Origin: an uncultured Candidatus Saccharibacteria bacterium
Lineage (GTDB): Bacteria > Patescibacteriota > Minisyncoccia > Phycocordibacterales > UBA12445
DNA: 64,000 bases
Direction: 5' to 3'
Assembly: GCA_964649715.1 (NCBI GenBank)
Contig: CAZYTH010000001.1
Span: forward strand, 9,245 to 73,244
The position numbers and the translations under genes are program-made. This document shows, in pieces, positions 3,829-58,085 of this stretch (positions within the stretch are counted from its first letter, which is position 1; every line of letters starts with the position of its first letter). Under the pieces are notes generated by a model, which saw only the letters and a list, made by a program, of their open reading frames with translations, was not told the origin of the DNA and searched no databases.

Positions 3829-5682
3829 ATGCAAGATGAAAAAATAGATGAGCCTTCTGTTGTGAGTAACTTACTAAAAACAGCGTTAAGTTACCTACAA
3901 ATGGGGTTTAGTATTATTCCAGTAAGCGGAAAAGAATCTATGGTTAAATGGAAAGAGTTCCAAACGAGATTACCAACAAAAGAGGAAGTTGAAAAATGGT
4001 TTTTTGAATTAGAGCCGACTGGGATAGCCATTGTTTGCGGAAAAGTATCTAACGTGGTTATTTTGGATATCGAAGCGAGTCACGGTGACATAACAAACTT
4101 AAATATTCCAAAAACCCCAACCGTTCGGAGTGGCGGTGGAGGCTTCCATTTCTATTTTAAATATCCAGAATCAGGTTCGATAAAATCCATCAACCTTCGA
4201 CAGAAAATGAAAATAGAAGGTGAATTGAAGTCTGATGGAACAATTGTGGTCGTTCCGCCGTCGCGACACCCATCGGGTGGGATATATAAATGGCAAGTTC
4301 CCTTTGAAGAAGCCGATTTAGTTGATATTCCAGAATGGTTATTAAGTCCACAAATGGAGGAGAGGGAAGTAGAAGTTAATCAACAAAATGACTGGGAATA
4401 TCTACTTGAAGGAGTCGACGAGGGCTCTCGAAACACCTCTGCTACAAAAATAATTGGAAAGTTATTGAGATATATTCCCCCACACAACTGGGACGAATTC
4501 GTTTGGCCATTAGTGGAGATGGTTAACGATAAAAATAACCCACCGCTTCCAGATGAAGAATTGAGAGTAATTTTTGAGAGTTTGGTTAGAAAAGAATCCG
4601 CAAGGCAAACTACGGAAAACAATCTATCCCACATTCAAGAAATCCTATCGGATGAAAATTTTAAATTAAAACCGATAAGTCTCAATGAGTTGCTTATACG
4701 AGAATTACCAGAAATACAATGGACGATCGACCAACTTATTCCTGAAGCCGGTCTTGCTGTGTTATCGGCTCCGCCGGCACACCATAAAACTTGGATGGCA
4801 TTATATTTTGCAATTCAAGTTGCAAACGGCGATAAAATATTTGATAGATTTGCAACAAAAAAATGCAATGTATTGTTCGTAGAGGAAGACTCGAATGACA
4901 GACTTATCACTTTACGAGTTAAAAAACTGTCTTCTCTCGATAAAGATGCATCTCTCCATTTTTTATTTCGATGCGGTCTTAAATTTGATGATTCACGAAT
5001 GATGGATGAATTTATTAAATTTATTAAAGAAAATAATATCGGATTTGTAGTTTTCGACTCCTTAATTCAATTTCATAACAGAGACGAGAATATTAATAAA
5101 GATATGGCACTGGTCTTTGGTCCTCTAAAGAAGATAACCAACATGGGAGTATCTGTTTTAGTCTTACACCACCACAGAAAAGAGAGTGGCGATGAAAATA
5201 ACTTGTCTTGGCGAGACAGATCACAGAGTCTTCGAGGAGCTTCAATGATTCTCTCATTACTAAATTCGCACCTTGTGATTCATCGCCAGAGTCAAAATAA
5301 ATCAATCCTTAGGCAGACTAAACTTTGGGAGAGAGAGGAAATGAAACCACTGGAATTCGAATTAATTGACGAGGGAGAGAAAGTGGTTATCAGATGTCTG
5401 GGTGAGATTGAGAAAGAGAAAGATAAAAAAACATTAGCAAAAGAAGCAATACTCGCAAATTTGAATGAAGAGTCCCTTACCAGAAGCCAACTTGCGGAAA
5501 AACTAAAGGATATCGCGAGCGAAAGCATTGTTGCCAACTTGGTTGCCGAAATGAAAAGAAACAAAGAAATAATTGTTGTAATGAAAATTGGCAAAAAAGG
5601 AAGAGTCGAACAGTATGGATTACCTGACGATGACCCAGATTTTAACAACAAAGAAGCGGCTAGTAACAAGCAAGCTTTATAA
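3829..5682 (+). CDS. Bifunctional primase-polymerase (Prim-Pol N-terminal domain) fused to a RepA/AAA_25-like P-loop helicase domain. A plasmid/phage-type replication initiator.
   Basis: N-terminus: GFSIIPVSGKESMVKWKEFQ ... VVILDIE ... GGGGFHFYF (bifunctional DNA primase/polymerase signature). Middle region has a degenerate Walker A (SAPPAHHKTW) and a Walker B-like VLFVEED. It lies next to a serine integrase. Confidence 0.65.
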   Translation: MQDEKIDEPSVVSNLLKTALSYLQMGFSIIPVSGKESMVKWKEFQTRLPTKEEVEKWFFELEPTGIAIVCGKVSNVVILDIEASHGDITNLNIPKTPTVRSGGGGFHFYFKYPESGSIKSINLRQKMKIEGELKSDGTIVVVPPSRHPSGGIYKWQVPFEEADLVDIPEWLLSPQMEEREVEVNQQNDWEYLLEGVDEGSRNTSATKIIGKLLRYIPPHNWDEFVWPLVEMVNDKNNPPLPDEELRVIFESLVRKESARQTTENNLSHIQEILSDENFKLKPISLNELLIRELPEIQWTIDQLIPEAGLAVLSAPPAHHKTWMALYFAIQVANGDKIFDRFATKKCNVLFVEEDSNDRLITLRVKKLSSLDKDASLHFLFRCGLKFDDSRMMDEFIKFIKENNIGFVVFDSLIQFHNRDENINKDMALVFGPLKKITNMGVSVLVLHHHRKESGDENNLSWRDRSQSLRGASMILSLLNSHLVIHRQSQNKSILRQTKLWEREEMKPLEFELIDEGEKVVIRCLGEIEKEKDKKTLAKEAILANLNEESLTRSQLAEKLKDIASESIVANLVAEMKRNKEIIVVMKIGKKGRVEQYGLPDDDPDFNNKEAASNKQAL

Positions 5683-5843
5683 GATTATATTTTTATAGAG
5701 GTCTGTAAACTTATAAAGTTGAATTTGTTTTTAAAAGGTTAAAACATCGGTGGGTTTAATATATAAAAAGATGGTACGACCTGTACTTTGGTGACACACA
5801 TAATAATATAAATATATTATTATATTTAGCCATATTTTAAGTT

Positions 5844-6005
5844 ATGAATAGTATCGAAGAATTGAGAGACTACGCGATTGCTGATGAAATCTTAAGAATT
5901 AAAACATTGTCTCGAGAGGAACTTATTAGCGAATTGGTGGCGGTAAAGTCTGAAATGATAGAGTCCTTTACTGACTTGAAAGAAATAAGAAAGTATGGAA
6001 ATTAA
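5844..6005 (+). CDS. Small ORF (53 aa) overlapping the integrase start. Candidate excisionase/RDF-like accessory protein.
   Basis: ATG at 5844, translating MNSIEELRDYAIADEILRIKTL...; it ends 11 nt inside the integrase ORF. It is absent from the supplied ORF track because it is shorter than 60 aa. Confidence 0.25.
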   Translation: MNSIEELRDYAIADEILRIKTLSREELISELVAVKSEMIESFTDLKEIRKYGN

Positions 6006-7674
6006 AAATCAAAAACTTAAATATTTTGTTTATGCCAGGAGGTCAATTGAAAAGAAAGATAAAGAAGAACGAGTGGCTTCTGTTGAGTCTCAACTTTTTG
6101 AAGTTAAGGAGATTGCAAAGAGAGAAAATTTAAAAATTATTGACACTTTCACAGAAACAAAATCAGCTAAAAGACCAGGTCGTCCGTACTTCGGAGAGAT
6201 GATGGACAGAATAGAAAAAGGACAAGCAAATGGAATTTTGTGTTGGAAGATGGATAGACTAGCTCGTAACCCTATCGACGCTGGGAGGATACAGTATCTA
6301 TTACAAACAGGAGTTCTTCAAAACATAAAAGCATCTGACAGGGATTGGTATCCAGACGATAACGTACTTATCTCTTCAGTTGAGTTCGGTGTTTCCAATC
6401 AATACTCAATAGACTTGGCAAAACATATAAAGAGAGGACTCAGAGACCGTTTGAATTCGGGAGTTAGACCGAGTATTGCTCCGATTGGTTATTTGAACAG
6501 TAGATATCATGAAAAAGGCTCGGAAGAAATTCTTGTCGATGAAGAGAGATTTTTCAAAGTTAGAAAATTGTTTGATTTAATGCTTACGGGACAATATTCT
6601 CCACTCCAGTTGGTTGAAATTGCAGATAAAGAATTACAACTTACAACTCGAGGGGTCGGGAGACATCAGAGTAAACCAATGGGAAAGTCGAATATGTATC
6701 GGGTGCTTACTAGTACTTTCTATTATGGAAGTTTTGAGTATCCAGCGGGAAGCGGAAACTGGTATGAGGGGAAACACAAACCTATTATCACCAAGGAAGA
6801 ATATGACAAGGTTCAATTTCTTCTCGGTCGTGGTGGAAGACCAAGACCAAAAACTCATATATTTGCTTATACAGGGCTTATGAGATGTTCCTGCTGTGGG
6901 GCCAGAGTGACCGCAGAGGAGAAATGGAAACATCAAAAGAATGGGAACTCTCATAACTATATTTATTATCATTGTACGGGCAGTGTGTCTCCAGACTGTA
7001 CTGGAAAGTGTGTCGAGGTGAAAGTTTTGGAAAAACAAATTGACGAGTTTCTTTCCAAGATTGAAATTCCTCCAGAGTTTCATGAATGGGCTATTGAGGA
7101 ATTGAAAAAACTTCACGGAAAAGAAAAGGGTGATAGAAATTCATTGATTAATAATCATGAACGTGACTATAAGGATTGTGTTTCTCGTCTTGATACTTTG
7201 GTTGAGCTCCGACTTAACAGAAAGATTTCTGACGAAATGTACGAGAGAAAGGAAAAGGAACTATTGGATAAAAAAAGAGAGTTGAAGCAATTGTTTGATG
7301 GAGATGATAAGAGGGTAGACGATTGGCTCGTTAGACTTGAAAGCACCCTTACTTTTGCAGAGAGAGCAAGAGAAGAATTCAAAAATGGTGATATCACCAA
7401 GAGAAGACAAATCATGACGGCTCTCGGGACTGAACATATTCTTAAAGACAGGGAAATTATTATCCAAACAGAAAAACCACTCCTTATACTTCAAGAAGTG
7501 GTTTCCGAGAACAATAAGTTATTAGATCCATTAGAACCTCCCAAAAGTGTTGGAAACAATGGGCGAATCAAACAAATCTACAACAAAAGTTCATCAATGT
7601 GGAGATGGGGGGAATCGAACCCCCGTGCAAAGGATTTCTCTAAGCTACCAATAGAAGACGTAGTTCGATTTTAA
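5995..7674 (+). CDS. Large serine recombinase (resolvase/invertase N-terminal catalytic domain, recombinase domain, Cys-rich zinc ribbon).
   Basis: YVYARRSIEKKDKEERVASVESQ carries the catalytic serine. A CxxC...C cluster (CSCCGARVT ... HCTGSVSPDCTGKC) follows. The C-terminal ~25 codons overlap the tmRNA 3' end. Confidence 0.85.
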   Translation: MEIKNQKLKYFVYARRSIEKKDKEERVASVESQLFEVKEIAKRENLKIIDTFTETKSAKRPGRPYFGEMMDRIEKGQANGILCWKMDRLARNPIDAGRIQYLLQTGVLQNIKASDRDWYPDDNVLISSVEFGVSNQYSIDLAKHIKRGLRDRLNSGVRPSIAPIGYLNSRYHEKGSEEILVDEERFFKVRKLFDLMLTGQYSPLQLVEIADKELQLTTRGVGRHQSKPMGKSNMYRVLTSTFYYGSFEYPAGSGNWYEGKHKPIITKEEYDKVQFLLGRGGRPRPKTHIFAYTGLMRCSCCGARVTAEEKWKHQKNGNSHNYIYYHCTGSVSPDCTGKCVEVKVLEKQIDEFLSKIEIPPEFHEWAIEELKKLHGKEKGDRNSLINNHERDYKDCVSRLDTLVELRLNRKISDEMYERKEKELLDKKRELKQLFDGDDKRVDDWLVRLESTLTFAERAREEFKNGDITKRRQIMTALGTEHILKDREIIIQTEKPLLILQEVVSENNKLLDPLEPPKSVGNNGRIKQIYNKSSSMWRWGESNPRAKDFSKLPIEDVVRF

Positions 7675-8011
7675 TTTGTATCATAACTTCACCTAAGTGA
7701 GTTAGACACTGTTTCGGAACTATTCTGATAGTAATCGAACAACAGCAGATTGTTCCTATTTCCTTAAATTTTGGAAAATCATCGGAAACATAATTTTCCT
7801 ATCCCGATTTTATGACGCCTGATCGAAATTATCGGAAGTCATCCGACCAAACGGTTACGCTAAAACGTAAACTGGAGCGAAAGGGGATACAATCCTCTTC
7901 GCTACATCTGACAAGTTTGCACTTATCGTTCCTAAGTTTATTTAACGAGCCTCTTAGGGTCCTCGGTCTTCAGTAGATTAGATACGACCAATGTCTAGGC
8001 CGATCATCCCC
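7600..8011 (-). ncRNA. ssrA: tmRNA (ssrA), one-piece, ~412 nt.
   Basis: The minus-strand RNA starts GGGGAUGAUCGG and ends ...CGGGGGUUCGAUUCCCCCCAUCUCCA. The 7-bp acceptor stem GGGGAUG/CAUCUCC includes a G3:U70 pair (Ala identity) and an A discriminator, and the T-arm is GGGGG-UUCGAUU-CCCCC. The gene sits immediately downstream of smpB on the same strand. A candidate tag ORF begins with a GCA resume codon and reads ANLSDVAKRIVSPFAPVYVLA-stop. Confidence 0.7.
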
Positions 8012-14808: not shown

Positions 14809-14881
14809 GCACGTATAGCTCAATTGGTAGAGCAATCGTCTTATACACGATCGGTTCTAGGTTCGAGTCCTAGTACGTGCA
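14809..14881 (+). tRNA. tRNA with a UAU anticodon (tRNA-Ile reading AUA); CCA not encoded.
   Basis: Manual fold: acceptor GCACGTA/TACGTGC, D-arm GCTC/GAGC, anticodon stem ATCGT/ACGAT with loop CTTATAC (anticodon TAT at 14842-14844), T-arm CTAGG-TTCGAGT-CCTAG, discriminator A. Confidence 0.75.
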
Positions 14882-15038
14882 CACTCATGGGAGAGGTTCA
14901 GGGTCCGAGAGGGCTCATATTTCCTCTGCCCATATTAATAAATTTTTATCTTCCATTGATTAAGTTATAGATAATTTCAAGAAAGAAAACTATTTTCTAA
15001 TAATATCTTTTTGAAATAGTTATTTTTGTTGTACAATA

Positions 15039-47303: not shown

Positions 47304-49283
47304 ATGAAAAAAATAAAAGCCCCGTTAATAATATTTTTTTTGACGTTTATTTTAGTTTCCGCGTCTTATTCGATTGGTTTATTCTACGGTATAGAAAATT
47401 TCTTTAGCGACATTCTTTATGATAGAAAACTAACGGATGAAAGAATCGTCGTCGTAAGCATTGATGACGAATCCATAAACAAGATAGGACAATGGCCTTG
47501 GAAAAGAAGCATTTTTGCTAAATTTTTTGAAAAATTAAATGAAAAGCCCCCATTGTCTCTTGGGCTAGATGTTTTAATGTCAGAAAATTCTGGTTATGGA
47601 ATCAAAGATGATGAAAGTCTGCAAAATGCATTTCAAAAAACCAATTACCCTATAGTTTTACCTGTTGAAGCTTTAAATTTAGAAATAAGAGAAAAAAACT
47701 CATACTCAGAGAAATTCTTAAGACCAATATTTTCAGAAATTTTAGATAAAATATATTATGGTCACGTTAATCTCATAAGTGATAGAGATGGGGTTGTTAG
47801 GAGCTTCCCTCTAACAATAGAAGATAATTATGGAGAGGCTTTTGATTCTTTCGCGAGGAAGACGTTGGTTGCTAGTGGTCTAGAAATTAAAGAAAGGTTT
47901 GGGGGAGATATTCAAAAGATAGTTTTTTCCGGCCCAAATGGAACCATAAGAAGGATTCCATTTTGGAGAATATTTAATGGCGATATGGATCCGAAAGCTC
48001 TCGAGGGTAAAATAATCTTTTTAGGGGCTACTGCTTCAAATTTACACGATGAGAAGCAGACCCCCTTTGATCGGGGGACACAGATGAGTGGGGTTGAGAT
48101 ACAAGCACAAGTAGCAAATATGTTTCTAAAGGGTTACGAGATAATAAGGTTGTCTAAATTGTCCATGTTGTTGTGGGTTGCTATCGCATCTATCCTTTCT
48201 GTTATTGTATTCTTTTTTTCATCTTCAACCTCGCTTGCGATAGTAATCAATTTATTTTTAGGTTTATTGCACACAATATTTATCATTTATCTTTTTGGTT
48301 TAGGATATTCTGCGAGCTTGGTTCACATAACGATGTCTTGGGTATTGGCAACCATTTTTTCTTTTTTTTATAAATATATGACGTTGGATAAAGAAAAAAG
48401 AGAGATGAGGAATGTTTTTTCAAAATATGTTTCAGGGGATGTTTTAAATGAGATTTTGCGTGATCCAAAAAAGATAAAGCTTGGGGGGGAAGACCGAGAT
48501 GTGACTGTTTTCTTTTCGGACGTGAGAGGGTTTACGACTCTGTCTGAGGGTATGACCCCCTCGCAATTGACCAATTTTTTAAACAAATACCTTACGAAGA
48601 TGACGGATATTGTTTTAAAGAATAAAGGTGTCGTCGATAAATACATAGGAGACGCAATCATGTCTTTCTGGGGTGCTCCCGTTGATAATAGAAAGCATGC
48701 CTTAGATGCGATAATTACATCTCTTTCTATGGTTGATGCCTTGGCAGATTTTAACAAAGAAAGCAGAAATACAGGCGATCCAGAGATAGACATTGGTATC
48801 GGCTTGAACTCTGGGAAGGTTACTGTTGGAAATATGGGTTCAGAAGCTCGTTTTGATTATACGGTTATGGGTGATACGGTTAATCTTGCGTCTAGACTAG
48901 AGGGTCAAACCAAGACCTATGGCGTAAAAATAATAATAAGTGCAACAACAAAAGAAAGATTGTCGTCCGAGGATATTAAAGAACACGATATAGTTTTTAG
49001 AGAAATAGATAGGATAAAGGTTAAGGGAAAAAATAAACCCGTGGTTATTTTTGAGGTTGTCCCAAATGGCGTTAAGGATATTGTTAGGGGCATTTTACCT
49101 CTTTTTGAAAAGGTTCGAGAAGATTATTATATTGGTAAATGGAAAGAGGTTGTTATGGGTGCCAAAGAGATAATGAATATAATGTCAGATGGGCCAACAA
49201 AAGTTTTAATGGATAGAAGTGTTTATTTTTTGGAATTTCCTCCGAAAGAATGGGTCGGGGTTTACGAAATGAAGACAAAATAG
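47304..49283 (+). CDS. CHASE2-sensor adenylate/guanylate cyclase (class III).
   Basis: N-terminal CHASE2 domain with TM helices. Catalytic domain: VTVFFSDVRGFTTLSE ... KYIGDAIMSFWGAP ... GIGLNSGKVTVGNMGS ... YTVMGDTVNLASRLEG. Confidence 0.85.
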   Translation: MKKIKAPLIIFFLTFILVSASYSIGLFYGIENFFSDILYDRKLTDERIVVVSIDDESINKIGQWPWKRSIFAKFFEKLNEKPPLSLGLDVLMSENSGYGIKDDESLQNAFQKTNYPIVLPVEALNLEIREKNSYSEKFLRPIFSEILDKIYYGHVNLISDRDGVVRSFPLTIEDNYGEAFDSFARKTLVASGLEIKERFGGDIQKIVFSGPNGTIRRIPFWRIFNGDMDPKALEGKIIFLGATASNLHDEKQTPFDRGTQMSGVEIQAQVANMFLKGYEIIRLSKLSMLLWVAIASILSVIVFFFSSSTSLAIVINLFLGLLHTIFIIYLFGLGYSASLVHITMSWVLATIFSFFYKYMTLDKEKREMRNVFSKYVSGDVLNEILRDPKKIKLGGEDRDVTVFFSDVRGFTTLSEGMTPSQLTNFLNKYLTKMTDIVLKNKGVVDKYIGDAIMSFWGAPVDNRKHALDAIITSLSMVDALADFNKESRNTGDPEIDIGIGLNSGKVTVGNMGSEARFDYTVMGDTVNLASRLEGQTKTYGVKIIISATTKERLSSEDIKEHDIVFREIDRIKVKGKNKPVVIFEVVPNGVKDIVRGILPLFEKVREDYYIGKWKEVVMGAKEIMNIMSDGPTKVLMDRSVYFLEFPPKEWVGVYEMKTK

Positions 49284-51527: not shown

Positions 51528-51956
51528 ATGGCAGAAAAAAAAGTTGTTAAAAAAATAAAATTGCAGATCCCTGCGGGTAAGGCGGTTCCTACACCTCCAG
51601 TTGGTCCCGCTTTGGGTCAGGCAGGTGTTAACATTGGAGAATTCATAACCAAATTTAATGCCGCGACAGCCTCGATGGTCGGCAGTATAATACCAGTAGA
51701 GATATCTGTTTATGATAACAGGAGTTTCGATTTTATTTTAAAGACCCCACCTGCAACAGACCTTCTTTTAAAGGCCGCTAAAGCCGAAAAAGGCTCTGGA
51801 ACGAACGTTAAATCAAAGGTTGGTAAGGTGACAAGGGCACAGCTGAGAGAGATTGCAGAAAAGAAAATGGTTGATATGACAGCTTCTTCCGTTGAGGCCG
51901 CTATGAATACTATTGCGGGAAGTGCAAGAAGTATGGGAATTGAAATTATAGATTAG
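51528..51956 (+). CDS. rplK: 50S ribosomal protein L11.
   Basis: [35 protein letters not shown]. Confidence 0.95.
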
Positions 51957-51981
51957 TTTTTATTCAGTAGTAGCTAAATTT

Positions 51982-52017
51982 AAAACCCGCAAAATTGTTT
52001 GCGGGTTTTCGATTTTT
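51982..52017. terminator. Strong bidirectional intrinsic terminator after rplK.
   Basis: AAAACCCGCAAA-attgtt-TGCGGGTTTT, flanked by T/A runs on both strands. Confidence 0.6.
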
Positions 52018-52157
52018 GATAGATCAGATAAACAGAAAGAAAAAAATGAAAAGGAAGAAGAAAACAATACAGGACAAGATAATAACTCTGTGCCAAGTCT
52101 TCAGTGGGGGGCGACTTTTGGGCAGAACATCAAGTTCCTCATTTGTTATTTTCATTT

Positions 52158-52316
52158 TATCTCCTTTGATAATTTTGGTTTATTTCAAAAACAAGTGTTC
52201 CTAGGATTATCAGTATCGGGGCGGTATCTGGTGATGCCTTCGGGCCATCAATAATTAAAGAAACTGAAGCGCTGATGCATACAATTGCTCCAAGCAAATC
52301 ATAAATATATTTCATT
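52158..52316 (-). CDS. Small hydrophobic protein (52 aa) with a perfect RBS.
   Basis: AAAAAAGGAGATAAA-ATG; product MKYIYDLLGAIVCISASVSLIIDGPKASPDTAPILIILGTLVFEINQNYQRR. Shorter than 60 aa, so it is not in the ORF track. Confidence 0.4.
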
Positions 52317-52329
52317 TTATCTCCTTTTT

Positions 52330-52482
52330 TAGTTTGTGAATTTTTCTATTATTGAACCAATAGAAGAGGTAAGGCAGATTGCCACCAAGATTATATCAAA
52401 AGTGTTTTTTGAGCTAATGACGATAGGGACAAATATGAGGGTGATTATAAGCAGTATTATTTCACTTGCATATTTTTCCATT
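52330..52482 (-). CDS. Small hydrophobic protein (50 aa), upstream in the same minus-strand mini-operon.
   Basis: MEKYASEIILLIITLIFVPIVISSKNTFDIILVAICLTSSIGSIIEKFTN. Its stop is followed 13 nt later by the RBS/ATG of the next small ORF. Confidence 0.35.
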
Positions 52483-52641
52483 TTTCTCTTTTGTTACCTA
52501 CCTTTTTAAAAGAACTTGAATTAGTAGTTTATACATTATTGTTTCGATTGAGTCAATAACACCATGGACTTATTTTTTGGAAAATGATATTACTATTCAT
52601 AGATATTTTGTTTTTTGTAAATCAAAGATACAATTAAGGAG

Positions 52642-53298
52642 ATGAAAGTGGAAGAAAAAAGAAAAGGTAAATATATAGTCATTGAAGGTCCTGGCAAGGC
52701 GGGAAAGAGTGTTGCTATTAAGTATTTGAAAAAGACGTTACCGGAAGATAAGTTTCATTTTGTTAAAGAGCCAGATGGGCCGATTAGAAGTATTTTACTT
52801 GATCCAAAATTTCAGGATATGGATCCTTTTACGGAGCTTTGTCTTTTTACCGCATGCAGATGTGAGCTTGTCAGGAAGGTAATTACAGAGAAGCTTAATT
52901 CTGGTATTCATGTGATAAGCGATAGGAATTTTTTGTCATCAAAGATGCATCAGATCAAAGGTTCAGAAAGAAATGATCTTAGCGCTATTTTTAATGCGAT
53001 GACAGAGACTGCTGTTGGTTTCTGCCCACCAGATATGTACATTTTGATTATCGCAGAGGTGAATGAATTGTTAAGAAGGAACGGAAACAAAGACAGAAAG
53101 GGTCAGATTGATAAATTTGATGACCGAGATGCTTGTTTCCAGCGCAGAGTAGTCGATGCATACCACGAGCATTTCCCCAAAGGTAAACCACACAGAATCA
53201 TTGATACGACATCTTTTCCTCCGCCAGACGAATCTGGTAAGGGAAGAACTGGTGAAGAAGTGCTTCAAATAATTTTATCTTTTATTGATAAAGAATAG
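52642..53298 (+). CDS. Deoxynucleoside kinase (dAK/dGK/dCK family).
   Basis: P-loop IVIEGPGKAGKS; ~218 aa; the dNK fold length. An RBS-like AAGGAGATGAAAGTG precedes the start. Confidence 0.75.
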   Translation: MKVEEKRKGKYIVIEGPGKAGKSVAIKYLKKTLPEDKFHFVKEPDGPIRSILLDPKFQDMDPFTELCLFTACRCELVRKVITEKLNSGIHVISDRNFLSSKMHQIKGSERNDLSAIFNAMTETAVGFCPPDMYILIIAEVNELLRRNGNKDRKGQIDKFDDRDACFQRRVVDAYHEHFPKGKPHRIIDTTSFPPPDESGKGRTGEEVLQIILSFIDKE

Positions 53299-53394: not shown

Positions 53395-56300
53395 ATGTGT
53401 AGTGATAATTATGATAGCATTTCTTTTATGAGTGAAAATATAGACAAAAACAAATTAGCCACCGCTGGGCTTGGTAATTCGGAGACTGTCCCGCAGAAAG
53501 AAGAGCGAGTTCTTGCGTTTTGGAGAGAGAATAAAATTTTTGAAAAAAGTTTGGAAAAAAAAGCCACAAAGGGTGATTTTGTTTTTTACGACGGACCACC
53601 TTTTGCTACAGGGCAGCCTCACTACGGACACCTGCTCCAGAGTGTTCTTAAGGATGTAATTCCAAGATACAAAACAATGTGCGGATATAGAGTTCCTAGG
53701 ACATGGGGGTGGGATTGTCACGGCCTCCCGATAGAAAACTTGATTGAAAAAGAATTGGGGTTGAAAAGTAAAAAAGACATAGAAGAACTTGGAGTTGATA
53801 AGTTCAATCAATCCGCGAGGGATAGTGTTTTTAGATATGCCGATGATTGGAAAATAACAATACCCAGAATAGGACGTTTTGTCGACATGGAAAATGATTA
53901 CAAGACAATGGACTCTTCTTATACGGAATCTATCTGGTGGGTTTTTAAGACCCTTTACGACAAAGGACTTGTTTATTTGGGCCATAAGTCTATGCATATA
54001 TGCCCTAGATGCGAGACCACGCTTGCTAATTTTGAGGTCAGTCAGGGATACAAAGACATAACTGATCTCTCTGTTACGGTCAAATTTGAGCTCTTGAACG
54101 CACAAATAAACTCTGAATCGTCAAATGAAGGAGTGAGAACATATATCTTGGCCTGGACTACAACTCCTTGGACACTGCCAGGAAACGTAGCTCTTGCTGT
54201 TGGTGAAAATATTGATTATGTAAAAATAGAAAATTCTTTAATTAGTGGAGAGTATCTGATATTGGCGAAAGAAAGACTTTCAATGATAGACGGTGAATAT
54301 AAAATAATCGAAGAATTTAAAGGAAAAGAACTTGTTGGGAGATCATATAGACCGCTTTTTAATTATTATTCTGATAGAGAAGATACAGGGAACAGGGAAA
54401 ATGGGTGGAAGATATATCCTGCAGACTTTGTAACCACAGAAGATGGGGTTGGTGTTGTTCATATTGCTCCAGCCTTTGGTAGTGACGATATGAGACTTGG
54501 GAAGGAAAATAATTTACCTTTTATTCAACATGTCGGAATGGATGGCAGATTCAGATCCGAGGTTACTGATTTTTCGGGAATGTTGGTTAAACCAAAAGAT
54601 GATCACCAGAGCGCCGATGTTTTAATCATAAAAAATTTAGCGGGTCGAGGATTACTTTTTGCAAAAGAAAAGATAACACACTCTTATCCTCACTGCTGGA
54701 GATGCGATACGCCTCTTTTGAATTATGGTACATCATCTTGGTTCGTGGATGTTCCAAAGATAAAAGAGAGCATGATTGCAAATAATCAGAAAATAAATTG
54801 GATACCTGAGAATGTGCGAGATGGAAGATTTGGTAAGTGGTTGGAAGGAGCATCTGATTGGGCAATATCTCGTTCGAGATATTGGGGAGCACCACTTCCT
54901 GTTTGGTCTTGTGAATTGTGTGGAGAGAAAAAAGTAATAGGTTCGATAAACGAATTAAAAAATGAGGTTTCTTCTGGTAATAAATATTTTGTTTTAAGGC
55001 ATGGAGAAGCAGATTCAAATGTTAAAGGTTATTTGAGTTCAGATAAGATACAAAAAGAGAATCATCTAACAGAAAATGGTAAAAAAATAGTTTCCGAAAC
55101 AGCTGATAAAATAAAAAATGAAAAAATAGACTTAATAATTTCTTCTGATTTTGTGAGAACAGCGGAGACAGCAAAGATCGTTGCCGAAAAAATAGGTATA
55201 CCTGAATCAAGTATTATTTGGGAACCAAGGTTGAGGGAGCTCAGAGTCGGCGATTTTGATGGAATCAAAGTTGAGGAGTATGGTCGTTATTTTTCTTCAT
55301 ACGAAGATAGGTTTTATAAAAATTCCCCAAATGGAGAAAATCACACCGATACAAAGAACAGAATTACAGAATTTTTATTTGAAACTGATTTAAAGTACAA
55401 GAATAAAAATATTTTAATAGTTAGCCATGGTGATCCGATATGGGTTATGTTCGCAGGAGCTTCTGGTCTTACGCCCAAAGATGCTGTATCTATAAAAGAG
55501 GATGTTTATCTCAAAAATGCTGAGTATCGTGAATTAAATTTTTCACCATTTCCGCATCGTGAAAATTATGAATTAGATCTTCATAAACCTTTTATTGATG
55601 ATGTGTATTTAGAATGCAAATGCGGAGGAAAGATGAATAGAATTCCAGAGGTTTTTGATTGTTGGTTTGAGTCGGGTGCTATGCCTTACGGACAGATGCA
55701 CTATCCTTTTGAGAATAAAGAAACTTTTGAGAAAAATTTTCCAGCAGATTTCATCGGAGAGGCACTTGATCAAACGAGAGGATGGTTCTACTCCCTCCTC
55801 GTTCTTTCCACGGCTTTATTTGACAAGCCCGCTTATAAAAATGTCATTGCGACTGGGCTTATTTTGGCGGAAGATGGTCAAAAAATGAGCAAGCGGTTAA
55901 AAAATTATCCTGAAGTATCTTATATAATAAATAAATACGGAGCTGATGCTACAAGGTATTATCTTTTAACCTCACCAGTTGTAAGGGGAGAAGAGATTAG
56001 GTTTTCCGAGAAAGGTGTGGACGAGGTTTACAAGAAAATTATCTTAAGACTTTATAATGTCGTTTCTTTTTTGGAGATGTATGAAGATAAAACAAAAGCC
56101 AAACCGGTCCAAACTGATGGAACCGTTCATCCTGGCACAAATCATAAACCAAAAATAGACTCGAAGAATATCCTCGACAGGTGGATTTTGGCGAGACTCG
56201 AAGAGATAGGCAAAAATACTACAGAAGCTTTAGAAAAATATGAACTAGATAAGGCATCTAGGCCGATAGAGGGGTTAATAGACGATCTTTCTACATGGTA

Positions 56301-57006
56301 TCTAAGACGTTCAAGAGATAGGTTAAAGGGTGATAATTCTGAAGACAAAGAAAATGCGTTAAAAACAATATGTTTTGTGATAAGGGAGTTGTCTTTAATA
56401 ATGGCTCCTTTTATGCCTTTTATCGCGGAAGAAATATATAAAAAAATGAATGGAGAACTAGAAAGCGTTCATTTAGAAAGTTGGCCAGAAGACAAAGAAG
56501 GAAATGATTCTAAGAAGATACTCATAGAAATGAAGAAAACAAGAGAAGTGGTATCTTTGGGATTGGAGGCTCGTGTCAAAGCCGGTATTAAAGTAAGACA
56601 ACCGTTGAATAATTTGTCTATAAAGGATACTTTTTTGTCTGGCAAAGAAGAATATTTAGAACTTATAAAAGATGAATTAAATATCAAGAAAGTAATTTTT
56701 GATAATAAAATACTAAACGATGTTGAGTTGGATCTAAATATTACAGAGGAATTGAAGGAAGAGGGGAGGTTGCGGGAATTTTTTAGAAATATTCAGGAAA
56801 TAAGGAAGGATATGGCATTAGATCCGTCACAGAAAGTTGTTATGGAAGTTCGCGCGGGGGATGTTGAGAAAAAATTTTTCGATAAGTTTTCAAAAGAGAT
56901 AGAAAAAGCAGCAGGGGTTTCCAAAATTGTTTTTAAAGAAGATATAAAAGGTAAAATTATCGAAGTGGGAGAAATGTCATTTGAAGTCTATCTTACTGTG
57001 TGTTAA
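53395..57006 (+). CDS. ileS: Isoleucyl-tRNA synthetase (type 2) carrying an inserted ~190-aa histidine-phosphatase (PGAM-like) domain. The true start is probably a few codons downstream (MSENIDK...).
   Basis: HIGH-region PFATGQPHYGHLL, WGWDCHGLPIE, editing-domain TTTPWTLPGN, KMSKRLKNYP (type-2 KMSKS). The insert (~54985-55560) has YFVLRHGEADSN (the RHG catalytic motif) and LIVSHGDPIW (the second His). Confidence 0.9.
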   Translation: MCSDNYDSISFMSENIDKNKLATAGLGNSETVPQKEERVLAFWRENKIFEKSLEKKATKGDFVFYDGPPFATGQPHYGHLLQSVLKDVIPRYKTMCGYRVPRTWGWDCHGLPIENLIEKELGLKSKKDIEELGVDKFNQSARDSVFRYADDWKITIPRIGRFVDMENDYKTMDSSYTESIWWVFKTLYDKGLVYLGHKSMHICPRCETTLANFEVSQGYKDITDLSVTVKFELLNAQINSESSNEGVRTYILAWTTTPWTLPGNVALAVGENIDYVKIENSLISGEYLILAKERLSMIDGEYKIIEEFKGKELVGRSYRPLFNYYSDREDTGNRENGWKIYPADFVTTEDGVGVVHIAPAFGSDDMRLGKENNLPFIQHVGMDGRFRSEVTDFSGMLVKPKDDHQSADVLIIKNLAGRGLLFAKEKITHSYPHCWRCDTPLLNYGTSSWFVDVPKIKESMIANNQKINWIPENVRDGRFGKWLEGASDWAISRSRYWGAPLPVWSCELCGEKKVIGSINELKNEVSSGNKYFVLRHGEADSNVKGYLSSDKIQKENHLTENGKKIVSETADKIKNEKIDLIISSDFVRTAETAKIVAEKIGIPESSIIWEPRLRELRVGDFDGIKVEEYGRYFSSYEDRFYKNSPNGENHTDTKNRITEFLFETDLKYKNKNILIVSHGDPIWVMFAGASGLTPKDAVSIKEDVYLKNAEYRELNFSPFPHRENYELDLHKPFIDDVYLECKCGGKMNRIPEVFDCWFESGAMPYGQMHYPFENKETFEKNFPADFIGEALDQTRGWFYSLLVLSTALFDKPAYKNVIATGLILAEDGQKMSKRLKNYPEVSYIINKYGADATRYYLLTSPVVRGEEIRFSEKGVDEVYKKIILRLYNVVSFLEMYEDKTKAKPVQTDGTVHPGTNHKPKIDSKNILDRWILARLEEIGKNTTEALEKYELDKASRPIEGLIDDLSTWYLRRSRDRLKGDNSEDKENALKTICFVIRELSLIMAPFMPFIAEEIYKKMNGELESVHLESWPEDKEGNDSKKILIEMKKTREVVSLGLEARVKAGIKVRQPLNNLSIKDTFLSGKEEYLELIKDELNIKKVIFDNKILNDVELDLNITEELKEEGRLREFFRNIQEIRKDMALDPSQKVVMEVRAGDVEKKFFDKFSKEIEKAAGVSKIVFKEDIKGKIIEVGEMSFEVYLTVC

Positions 57007-57497: not shown

Positions 57498-58085
57498 ATG
57501 TCATATCATATTTATCAGACAGAAGGTTTTATATTAAGTTCTATATCTGTAAACGAGGCTAGCCGTTATCTTTCTATTTACACAAAAGACCTCGGTCTTA
57601 TAAGGGCACTCGCACAGGGTTCAAGGAATTTAAGATCAAAATTAAAACACTCTTTACAAGATTTATCTTTTTCAAAAGTTTCTTTCGTCCGTGGGCGAGA
57701 AATATGGAGGATCGTTAATTCCGAATGTATATATTTTCCTAATATGAATTTGGAAAGAAGTAAAAAAGATTTACTTGCAAAAACCTCCTTACTTTTGAGG
57801 AGACTTATAAACGGAGAGGAGGCTGATCCTCGTAACTTTGAAGACATAATGAAGGGTTTTTATTTTATGATAAACGAGGATTTGACTTCGGAGGAGTTGT
57901 CTTTGTTTGAACCAATTTTTATTTTAAAAATATTAAGAAATCTTGGTTATGGTCCTTTTGAAAAAGAATTGCAAAATGTTGTTGATTTTGAAGAATGGGA
58001 GAGGAGTAGGTTGTTTCAGGATAAAAACGTTTTGGCGATGATGTTTTCACATATTGATAAGGCTTTAAAGCATAGTCATCTATAA
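57498..58085 (+). CDS. recO: DNA repair protein RecO (short form).
   Basis: MSYHIYQTEGFILSSISVNEASRYLSIYTKDLGLIRALAQGSRNLRSKL matches the RecO N-terminal OB-fold consensus. Confidence 0.65.
   Translation: MSYHIYQTEGFILSSISVNEASRYLSIYTKDLGLIRALAQGSRNLRSKLKHSLQDLSFSKVSFVRGREIWRIVNSECIYFPNMNLERSKKDLLAKTSLLLRRLINGEEADPRNFEDIMKGFYFMINEDLTSEELSLFEPIFILKILRNLGYGPFEKELQNVVDFEEWERSRLFQDKNVLAMMFSHIDKALKHSHL

Follow-up and report, generated by a model that had tools for sequence, protein, structure and literature searches.

Few known enzymes are as conserved as the aminoacyl-tRNA synthetases. To our knowledge, the core of a synthetase seldom hosts an extra catalytic domain, and those nested in bacterial synthetases nearly always serve in editing. 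Here we analyzed an ileS gene within a 64,000 nt stretch of DNA from an uncultured Candidatus Saccharibacteria bacterium (GenBank assembly GCA_964649715.1, contig CAZYTH010000001.1, positions 9,245 to 73,244 of the forward strand; in the following referred to as the window). The gene product is predicted to be a type-2 isoleucyl-tRNA synthetase (IleRS) and carries a second enzyme domain of the histidine-phosphatase family (His_Phos) inside the element known as CP3. The described systems that come closest are the type-2 enzymes of P. megaterium (8C8U) and T. thermophilus (1ILE): everything outside aa 527-722 of the window protein aligns with them end to end, including the CxxC...CxC zinc knuckle of CP3.

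CP3 has a different structure in every solved IleRS and contains a zinc motif in the enzyme from T. thermophilus (PMC7191050). Its name stems from the structure papers on the Candida and yeast enzymes, and the catalytic-core ranges of the P. megaterium paper put the same region within CP1/CP2 (PMC10485003). In other nomenclature the CP3 zinc knuckle is called part of CP2. The solved IleRS 8C8U has 2 residues at the position where the window protein has an enzyme domain of 196 aa, and the solved IleRS chains listed contain no mention of a phosphatase.

The coding sequence of the window gene is one unbroken frame on the plus strand (53395-57006) with 0 ambiguous bases. Among solved structures P. 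megaterium IleRS2 is its closest relative (8c8u, E 6e-229), and in this alignment residues 30-526 of the query correspond to chain residues 8-479 and residues 723-1110 to chain residues 482-860. Because the alignment breaks between 526 and 723, the 196-aa insert replaces a 2-residue loop. It is located between the CxxC pair (C506, C509) and the CxC pair (C741, C743) of the zinc knuckle. The order of motifs along the protein is WGAPLPVWSCELCGE (aa 497-511), YFVLRHGEADSN (aa 531-542, nt 54985-55020), LIVSHGDPIW (aa 674-683), ELDLHKPFIDDVYLECKCGG (aa 726-745) and FDCWFESG (aa 754-761). Pfam assigns PF00300 to aa 532-701 (E 4.1e-29, 102.1 bits compared to a cut-off of 21.7, profile positions 2-170 of 194), and this match cuts the tRNA-synt_1 match (PF00133) into two stretches. 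Residue numbers refer to the 1203-aa window protein, whereas the 118-sequence alignment A3 and the full-length model use a 1192-aa numbering. The features of the insert are the following:

53395-57006, plus strand: ileS, type-2 isoleucyl-tRNA synthetase with nested phosphatase domain (1203 aa; alternative start M12 at 53428).
54973-55560, plus strand: nested His_Phos_1 domain (PF00300), aa 527-722 (196 aa), with borders from the 8c8u alignment.
54997-55005, plus strand: RHG motif with R535 (81/81 sequences), the nucleophile H536 (81/81) and G537 (78/81).
55156-55158, plus strand: R588, second phosphate-binding arginine (FVRT), in at least 95% of 81 sequences and invariant in alignments A2 and A3.
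55237-55239, plus strand: E615, presumed general acid/base (RLRE), at least 95% conserved and invariant in A3 as E604.
55426-55428, plus strand: H678, second catalytic histidine (SHG), 81/81.

The original prediction, made from the letters of the window, had placed an extra segment with an RHG signature and a second catalytic histidine (LIVSHGDPIW) inside IleRS at 54985-55560, and had estimated ~245 residues where canonical enzymes have ~50-60. Both statements were essentially right. The measured insert spans 54973-55560, and the distance between the anchors (window aa 497-765) amounts to 269 residues compared to 73-85 in insert-less relatives. Both signatures were recovered at aa 531-542 and 674-683. 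The proposed comparison with PF00300 gave the strong match described above, and the proposed alignment with type-2 IleRS returned a true 196-aa insertion relative to 8c8u.

To compare the insert with known folds we used AlphaFold2 models. The insert alone was modelled with a pLDDT of 93.9 and a pTM of 0.90; in the model of the full-length protein (pLDDT 90.2, pTM 0.83) its blocks reach 94-98 and are among the most confident ones. The independent fold that the original prediction had proposed to look for is therefore seen in both models, which indicate that the insert is a complete, independently folding His_Phos domain. A Foldseek search with the insert model retrieved 294 PDB matches at E<=1e-3, and among the matches listed all belong to the histidine-phosphatase family. 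The top match was the metal-independent phosphoserine phosphatase PspA (4ij6, TM 0.80, 26% identity), and others were Rv2419c (a glucosyl-3-phosphoglycerate phosphatase), a riboflavin-pathway phosphatase, PhoE and CobC. When a profile of alignment A2 was compared with PDB sequences, PhoE (1ebb) ranked first (E 2e-32).

Among 81 fused proteins the insert has a mean identity of 40%. The values are higher in the catalytic halves (66-68%), the editing region (58%) and the anticodon-binding domain (52%), and the C-terminal domain reaches 36%. The catalytic residues of the insert are kept despite this mean identity of 40%: in addition to the positions given above, N542 is present in 78/81 fused proteins, and the catalytic columns are also invariant in free-standing relatives. 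Judged by this pattern of conservation, the phosphatase domain is under purifying selection. As a tentative reading, which we prefer, the inserted domain is a PhoE/PspA-like phosphomonoesterase that acts with IleRS, most likely on a small phosphorylated molecule. The conservation bears directly on an alternative in which the domain would be non-catalytic, its pocket being kept to sense a phosphometabolite and to tune IleRS allosterically, or the fold serving as a structural stand-in for part of CP3. The cysteines of the zinc knuckle are gone in ~43% of the 81 relatives, so the domain may have assumed a structural role, and its high confidence within the full-length model fits such a role as well. 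But the nucleophile histidine and the general acid glutamate, and not just the arginines, are (nearly) invariant across 81-118 sequences, and the free-standing orthologues retain the same residues. We consider a non-catalytic module very unlikely.

To determine how widespread the fused architecture is, we scanned one genome per species with the whole protein. Among 591 relatives the best 80 were examined, and all 80 carry the insert (26-53% identity), as the survey suggested by the original prediction was meant to find out. They are labelled Patescibacteria, Paceibacterota or 'Candidatus' Taylor-, Nomura-, Adlerbacteria and similar, and the insert is located inside a single open frame of ~1100-1230 aa when the gene is complete. 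In a collection of 5.8 billion protein clusters, the best 120 matches all combine PF00133 with PF00300 (120/120). An exhaustive phmmer search with aa 480-775 as query yielded 237 clusters (50% identity) at E<=1e-30; of these, nearly all of the best 150 span flanks and insert without a break, at ~residues 440-760 of proteins of ~1150-1200 aa. A word-index search with the 217-aa insert alone had been misleading, since it returned 1 fused fragment and 90 free-standing proteins and hid hundreds of fused IleRS, which were exposed by the exhaustive phmmer and the full-length searches. In the 80 genomes, the 120 homologues and at least 150 clusters, the fused architecture was found only in Patescibacteria (Paceibacteria). 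Two refinements of the original prediction follow: the host element is the CP3 zinc knuckle, and the architecture is a clade-wide feature and not a one-off.

The same data bear on the question of an artefact, which could be a chimeric assembly, two genes joined by a frameshift or a removed intein-like element. The same insertion occurs in all 80 closest species genomes, and a chimera is therefore ruled out; the insert is also in-frame in 41 metagenome loci and in >300 database proteins, and base composition is flat over both of its junctions, which excludes a frameshift likewise. Both junctions lie inside one folded CP3 element. No intein family was detected in the Pfam scan of the window IleRS protein, and the insert corresponds to a complete His_Phos fold, so that an intein or another self-removing insert was rejected. 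That the segment is a normal part of type-2 IleRS was rejected as well, as 8c8u, 1ile and the yeast enzymes stop at ~aa 523-526 and resume at ~aa 723. Taken together, the probability of an artefact is negligible. One metagenomic fragment (P0001) has a frameshifted C-terminus, which affects the P0001 contig alone.

The synthetase half was analyzed in the same way. The protein scores 901.2 bits against TIGR00392, above the cut-off of 621.4. After 8c8u, the next solved relatives are T. thermophilus IleRS and the cytoplasmic enzymes of yeast, Candida and human. Matches to IleRS2 and the eukaryotic cytoplasmic enzymes have E values of ~1e-214 to 1e-229, compared to 5e-86 for the type-1 IleRS of S. 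aureus. The isolated editing domain from T. thermophilus (1wk8) aligns with window aa 218-433. A protein identical to the window IleRS is present in NCBI data (P0241, on a contig of 117 kb) and is one of the 120 best matches. The features of the synthetase are:

53620-53631, plus strand: HYGH (HIGH) class I signature, aa 76-79; H76 in 80/81, G78 in 80/81 and H79 in 79/81 relatives.
54154-54174, plus strand: threonine-rich motif WTTTPWT of the CP1 editing domain, aa 254-260; each position in 80-81 of 81 sequences, invariant in A3.
54856-54888, plus strand: CP2-CP3 linker DWAISRSRYWG, aa 488-498; highly conserved in the 81-sequence alignment.
54883-54972, plus strand: aa 497-526, N-terminal half of the zinc knuckle of CP3, with Cys506, Cys509 and the helix IGSINELKNEV; C506 and C509 in 46/81 relatives.
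55561-55653, plus strand: aa 723-753, C-terminal half of CP3, containing NYELDLHKPFIDD and, as second Cys pair, C741 and C743; C741 in 46/81, C743 in 44/81.
55654-56034, plus strand: Rossmann catalytic domain, second half, containing WFESG at 55663-55677 and KMSKR at 55882-55896 (aa 830-834); K830 and K833 in 81/81.
56095-56139, plus strand: disordered loop ahead of the anticodon-binding domain, which is the second phosphatase site of some relatives; pLDDT <50, residues 890-904 of the 1192-aa model.
56176-56610, plus strand: Anticodon_1 helical anticodon-binding domain, aa 928-1072 (Pfam E 5e-33).
56722-56997, plus strand: type-2 C-terminal domain DUF5915, aa 1110-1201 (Pfam E 3e-12).

With HYGH, KMSK and WTTTPWT retained, the synthetase half is intact and predicted to be active in charging. 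The best explanation of the window gene is that it encodes a functional type-2 isoleucyl-tRNA synthetase, as far as can be predicted from its motifs. In the yeast enzyme the linker 453-ARDWNVSRNRYWG-465 forms part of the pocket for reveromycin A, which is located where the tRNA binds (PMC7955072). The window linker DWAISRSRYWG is the counterpart of this segment, and CP3 starts there. The base of the inserted domain is therefore probably anchored beside the aminoacylation site.

The closest relatives of the insert that are free-standing proteins (187-216 aa, 35-47% identity) come from Paceibacterota and Minisyncoccales. On the contigs of six of these relatives the corresponding gene, here called hp, adjoins argS and/or an insert-less ileS in 7/7 cases. 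Wherever ileS is present on these contigs it is without insert, and its product has 938-975 aa if the gene is complete. In three of seven contigs there are overlaps of 4-8 nt between adjacent genes of the hp-ileS cluster; in L085 hp and ileS share 8 nt. The order is argS-hp-ileS in L081 and L086, with recO 3' of ileS (in L086 with one small ORF between); in L083 argS-hp is located beside an ileS of opposite orientation, and hp-ileS and argS-hp are the gene pairs on L082 and L084, two short contigs. Two further contigs have an additional gene in the cluster, each as a single case that may hint at a link to conflict systems: L087 with the order hp-Fic-ileS-recO (Fic at 5807-6934) and L088 with a small P-II-like ORF (5596-5916) between hp and ileS.

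Using a profile of the free-standing proteins, a metagenome scan returned 80 loci. The domain was fused in 41 of them; in 29 a free hp was located directly upstream of ileS on the same strand, in 2 the genes were convergent, and in 4 they were not adjacent. The flank was too short in the remaining 4 of 80, which leaves 35 informative free-standing loci. A free hp thus adjoins an insert-less ileS in 31/35 informative loci, and the usual order is argS-hp-ileS-recO. In the majority of split loci argS is the gene before hp, in the majority of fused loci it is the gene before ileS, and recO follows ileS in both. Within flanks of 4-5 kb, a second, free hp was found in 0/121 fused loci. As the split and fused forms share a chromosomal neighbourhood and exclude each other locally, they represent a textbook Rosetta-stone pair. 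At one locus (L112, 4418-5585) two tandem free phosphatase genes are located upstream of an insert-less ileS; none of the other loci, 160 in all, has two separate copies.

The domain is not confined to CP3. Among ~340 long phosphatase-bearing IleRS sequences, ~330 have it at the CP3 site. In P0239 (L169, 5001-8822) it is located between the catalytic body and the anticodon-binding domain and is missing from CP3; this protein has GVHH in place of HxGH and is encoded in a genome of 42% GC, with ileS between uvrB and uvrC. In the model of the window protein the loop at this second site is the sole disordered internal loop. P0206 and P0201 have a phosphatase at CP3 and at the second site, and P0227 has two tandem copies. 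The truncated P0235 contains three copies. One of them follows the second Cys pair of CP3 and has the canonical RHGETDWN motif of other branches of the family, another is flanked by HYPF.N and FIAEGLDQTRGWF shortly ahead of KMSKS, and the third begins at the second site. All variant copies (P0239, P0206, P0201, P0235 and P0227) show RH[GAT], and the second histidine is present wherever the sequence extends that far. Neighbour-joining trees, which are too crude to count insertion events, place 77/81 inserts and 78/81 IleRS bodies in one purely fused clade, with the split forms near the base. As read from these trees, the pattern fits one main ancient insertion and a few later ones.

Some patescibacterial IleRS proteins contain a further nested enzyme domain in addition to the phosphatase insert. 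This is a NUDIX domain at aa 226-343 in P0234 (MCX6807234.1), a GNAT domain at aa 285-415 in P0305 (MFC1801975.1) and, shortly ahead of KMSKS, an AAA_18 P-loop domain in P0219 (aa 747-863). In a single case (P0059) a nucleotidyltransferase toxin domain of the AbiEii type is joined to a relative of the phosphatase.

The gene order raises the question whether the association reflects function. A housekeeping gene for a metabolic phosphatase or mutase, such as a short phosphoglycerate mutase or a phosphatase for phosphoserine or sugar phosphates, that happened to lie beside ileS could have been captured into a permissive loop, so that the two activities are unrelated and the fusion only secures co-expression in a tiny genome. 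The best NCBIfam and fold matches of the insert are metabolic enzymes (dPGM_arch, CobC, PspA, Rv2419c, PhoE). Moreover, recO and argS are equally syntenic without a known functional link to ileS, CP3 is the most variable CP element among IleRSs and hence tolerant of insertions, NUDIX, GNAT and AAA_18 domains are nested in patescibacterial IleRS as well, and the inserts are not basic (median pI 6.3). Such a capture has to accommodate, however, that the same family entered IleRS at no fewer than three sites, at least, and with up to three copies per protein, and that the RHGETDWN-type copy looks like a different lineage of the family. The local exclusion of fused and split states and the adjacency in nearly all informative loci also speak against it, and no cut-off of a metabolic-enzyme equivalog is reached. 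We regard an unrelated passenger as rather unlikely, but as a serious rival to a functional coupling. Whichever of the roles named in the original prediction may apply (editing, regulatory or moonlighting), the split-gene neighbours and the repeated independent insertions argue for a real functional partnership over an accident.

For a phosphomonoesterase acting with IleRS, the residues suggest how the domain would work. The reaction would run through a phospho-histidine intermediate formed when H536 accepts the phosphoryl group, with the phosphate bound by R535, R588 and H678 and the leaving group receiving a proton from E615. In this way the domain could dephosphorylate a by-product of nucleotide type, a regulator or an inhibitor near the synthetase, and in sister lineages a separate protein encoded immediately upstream of ileS would do the same job. 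The data show the architecture and its breadth, purifying selection on the active sites of both enzymes, the relation of split to fused forms and the repeated acquisition; from these we infer a phosphatase activity, a coupling to the synthetase that goes beyond a common transcript, and a class of substrate. A small substrate is favoured because of the fold class, the size and the near-neutral charge of the fused inserts; the pI of free-standing proteins from genes adjacent to ileS ranges from 5.7 to 10.3.

A macromolecular target, the tRNA end or the KMSKS loop, is possible because CP3 is anchored at the linker of the CCA pocket and the other sites are clustered round the catalytic body: site 3 lies just before KMSKS and site 2 ~80 residues after it. 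The substrate would then be a 3'- or 2'-phosphate on the CCA terminus of tRNA(Ile), originating from damage or a toxin, or a phosphorylated IleRS marked by a kinase toxin near KMSKS, and the domain would be a built-in repair or antitoxin module. Members of the superfamily such as SixA, PGAM5 and Sts-1 act on proteins, and class I synthetases are among the targets of HipA-like kinase toxins; both facts count in favour of such a target, as do the toxin-domain fusion of P0059 and the Fic gene between hp and ileS in L087. On the other hand, we know of no histidine phosphatase acting on RNA ends, the inserts are near-neutral instead of basic, and the associations with toxins are single cases. A macromolecular substrate appears unlikely to us. 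Equally doubtful is a more specific version, in which the domain is a built-in step of tRNA(Ile) charging or protection at the rim of the aminoacylation site and dephosphorylates the CCA end of the tRNA, IleRS itself or a phosphorylated inhibitor directed against IleRS. If it were true, an IleRS made of two enzymes, fused or split within an operon, would serve an entire bacterial class as a repair or anti-toxin device, and related variants would add NUDIX, GNAT or P-loop kinase domains onto the same scaffold.

Several observations weigh against the preferred reading of a small-molecule phosphomonoesterase acting with IleRS. In addition to the passenger role discussed above, 4/35 informative free hp genes are located away from ileS, all of them in one sub-branch. 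The adjacency could be inherited synteny, like that of recO, and adjacency alone raises the odds of a local insertion into ileS. The insert evolves faster than the catalytic core (40% compared to 66-68% identity), and the main fused clade of the neighbour-joining trees does not include three or four of the fused sequences. Finally, the isolated insert reaches the cut-off of none of the NCBIfam equivalogs, and homology therefore names no substrate. Among the models of cofactor-dependent phosphoglycerate mutase (dPGM) it scores 89 bits compared to 225 for NF038349 (dPGM_arch, the best), 42 compared to 316 for NF002339 and 59 compared to 261 for PRK03482. It reaches 72.8 bits with the alpha-ribazole phosphatase CobC (TIGR03162, cut-off 162.9) and 63 bits with PspA (NF045917, cut-off 350), although PspA is the best structural match. 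The names dPGM, PspA, CobC, GpmB and SixA were accordingly rejected, as all equivalogs are far below cut-off.

The neighbours of the window ileS resemble those of its relatives downstream and differ from most of them upstream:

52642-53298, plus strand: thymidylate-kinase-like P-loop gene directly upstream of ileS (PF02223, E 1e-20); most relatives have argS there.
57498-58085, plus strand: recO-like gene (RecO_N, E 3e-12; tblastn with the RecO of L081).

The downstream order ileS-recO-DUF11-class II aminoacyl-tRNA synthetase is the order found in L081. The gene argS was not found in the 64,000-nt window. The kinase-like neighbour is worth mentioning since one relative holds a P-loop kinase-like domain within IleRS. 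Further upstream, rplK (51528-51956) is without a following rplA, and the adjoining 685 nt (51957-52641) contain no plus-strand ORF >70 aa and only two hydrophobic ORFs of ~50 aa on the minus strand.

Three other genes of the window were recorded. A tRNA-Ile gene with the anticodon UAU is located at 14809-14882 on the plus strand (ARAGORN; Rfam tRNA 73.9 bits). Most bacteria read AUA with a lysidine-modified CAU tRNA, and a UAU tRNA-Ile is unusual; this gene may bear on the recognition of tRNA by the type-2 IleRS of the window. A tmRNA gene with the tag peptide ANLSDVAKRIVSPFAPVYVLA is present at 7597-8011 on the minus strand, and the gene at 47304-49283 on the plus strand encodes a protein with a CHASE2 sensor and an adenylate/guanylate cyclase domain.

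Much of the Patescibacteria thus retains a second, unrelated catalytic centre within IleRS. This domain is nested in IleRS, encoded adjacent to ileS in sister lineages and re-acquired at other sites, which is the classical signature of partner proteins and therefore provides a testable lead to a requirement of isoleucine charging, in bacteria that are ultra-small and host-dependent. The architecture is real and widespread, and the fused sequences are public but under-annotated. NCBI names them 'class I tRNA ligase family protein' and in one case 'GNAT family N-acetyltransferase' (P0305). Metabolic reconstructions may therefore overlook the synthetase as well as the phosphatase. The literature searched contained no description of the fused IleRS-phosphatase architecture or of an hp-ileS partnership, and in a 2026 study that annotated 96,219 IleRS sequences for their domain architecture, phosphatases and Patescibacteria both go unmentioned.

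The known systems most similar to the inserted domain are the small histidine phosphatases of broad specificity PhoE/YhfR (1EBB, 1H2E), PspA (4IJ5/4IJ6), CobC (6NRU, 6E4B) and Rv2419c. They resemble the insert in fold and size (TM 0.75-0.80 over ~195 residues), and the catalytic set RHG, N, R, E, H of PhoE, PspA, CobC and Rv2419c is that of the insert. These enzymes share 21-26% identity with the insert, and, unlike it, they are free-standing and without a link to a synthetase. In the bifunctional RNase H/acid phosphatase of the M. tuberculosis Rv2228c type (PRK07238), a CobC-like histidine phosphatase is likewise combined with an enzyme acting on nucleic acid, which makes it a precedent. The phosphatase half of this model matches the insert with 68 bits compared to a cut-off of 326, but the fusion with RNase H is end-to-end and not nested. 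In 6-phosphofructo-2-kinase/fructose-2,6-bisphosphatase (PFK-2/FBPase-2), the classic His_Phos_1 fusion that couples two activities, the profile matches the phosphatase half with E 2e-17. There the fusion is in tandem, the substrates are known and the partner kinase acts on the same metabolite, which is unlike the window IleRS. An IleRS that hosts a second enzyme domain is represented by NF040702 (ileS_w_GNAT), but domain and site differ from the insert described here; with a cut-off of 1999 the window protein scores 326.6 bits and P0305 321, and Pfam found no GNAT domain in the window protein. A phosphatase nested within the core of a synthetase therefore sets the window protein apart from all three precedents, the Rv2228c type, PFK-2/FBPase-2 and IleRS with GNAT.

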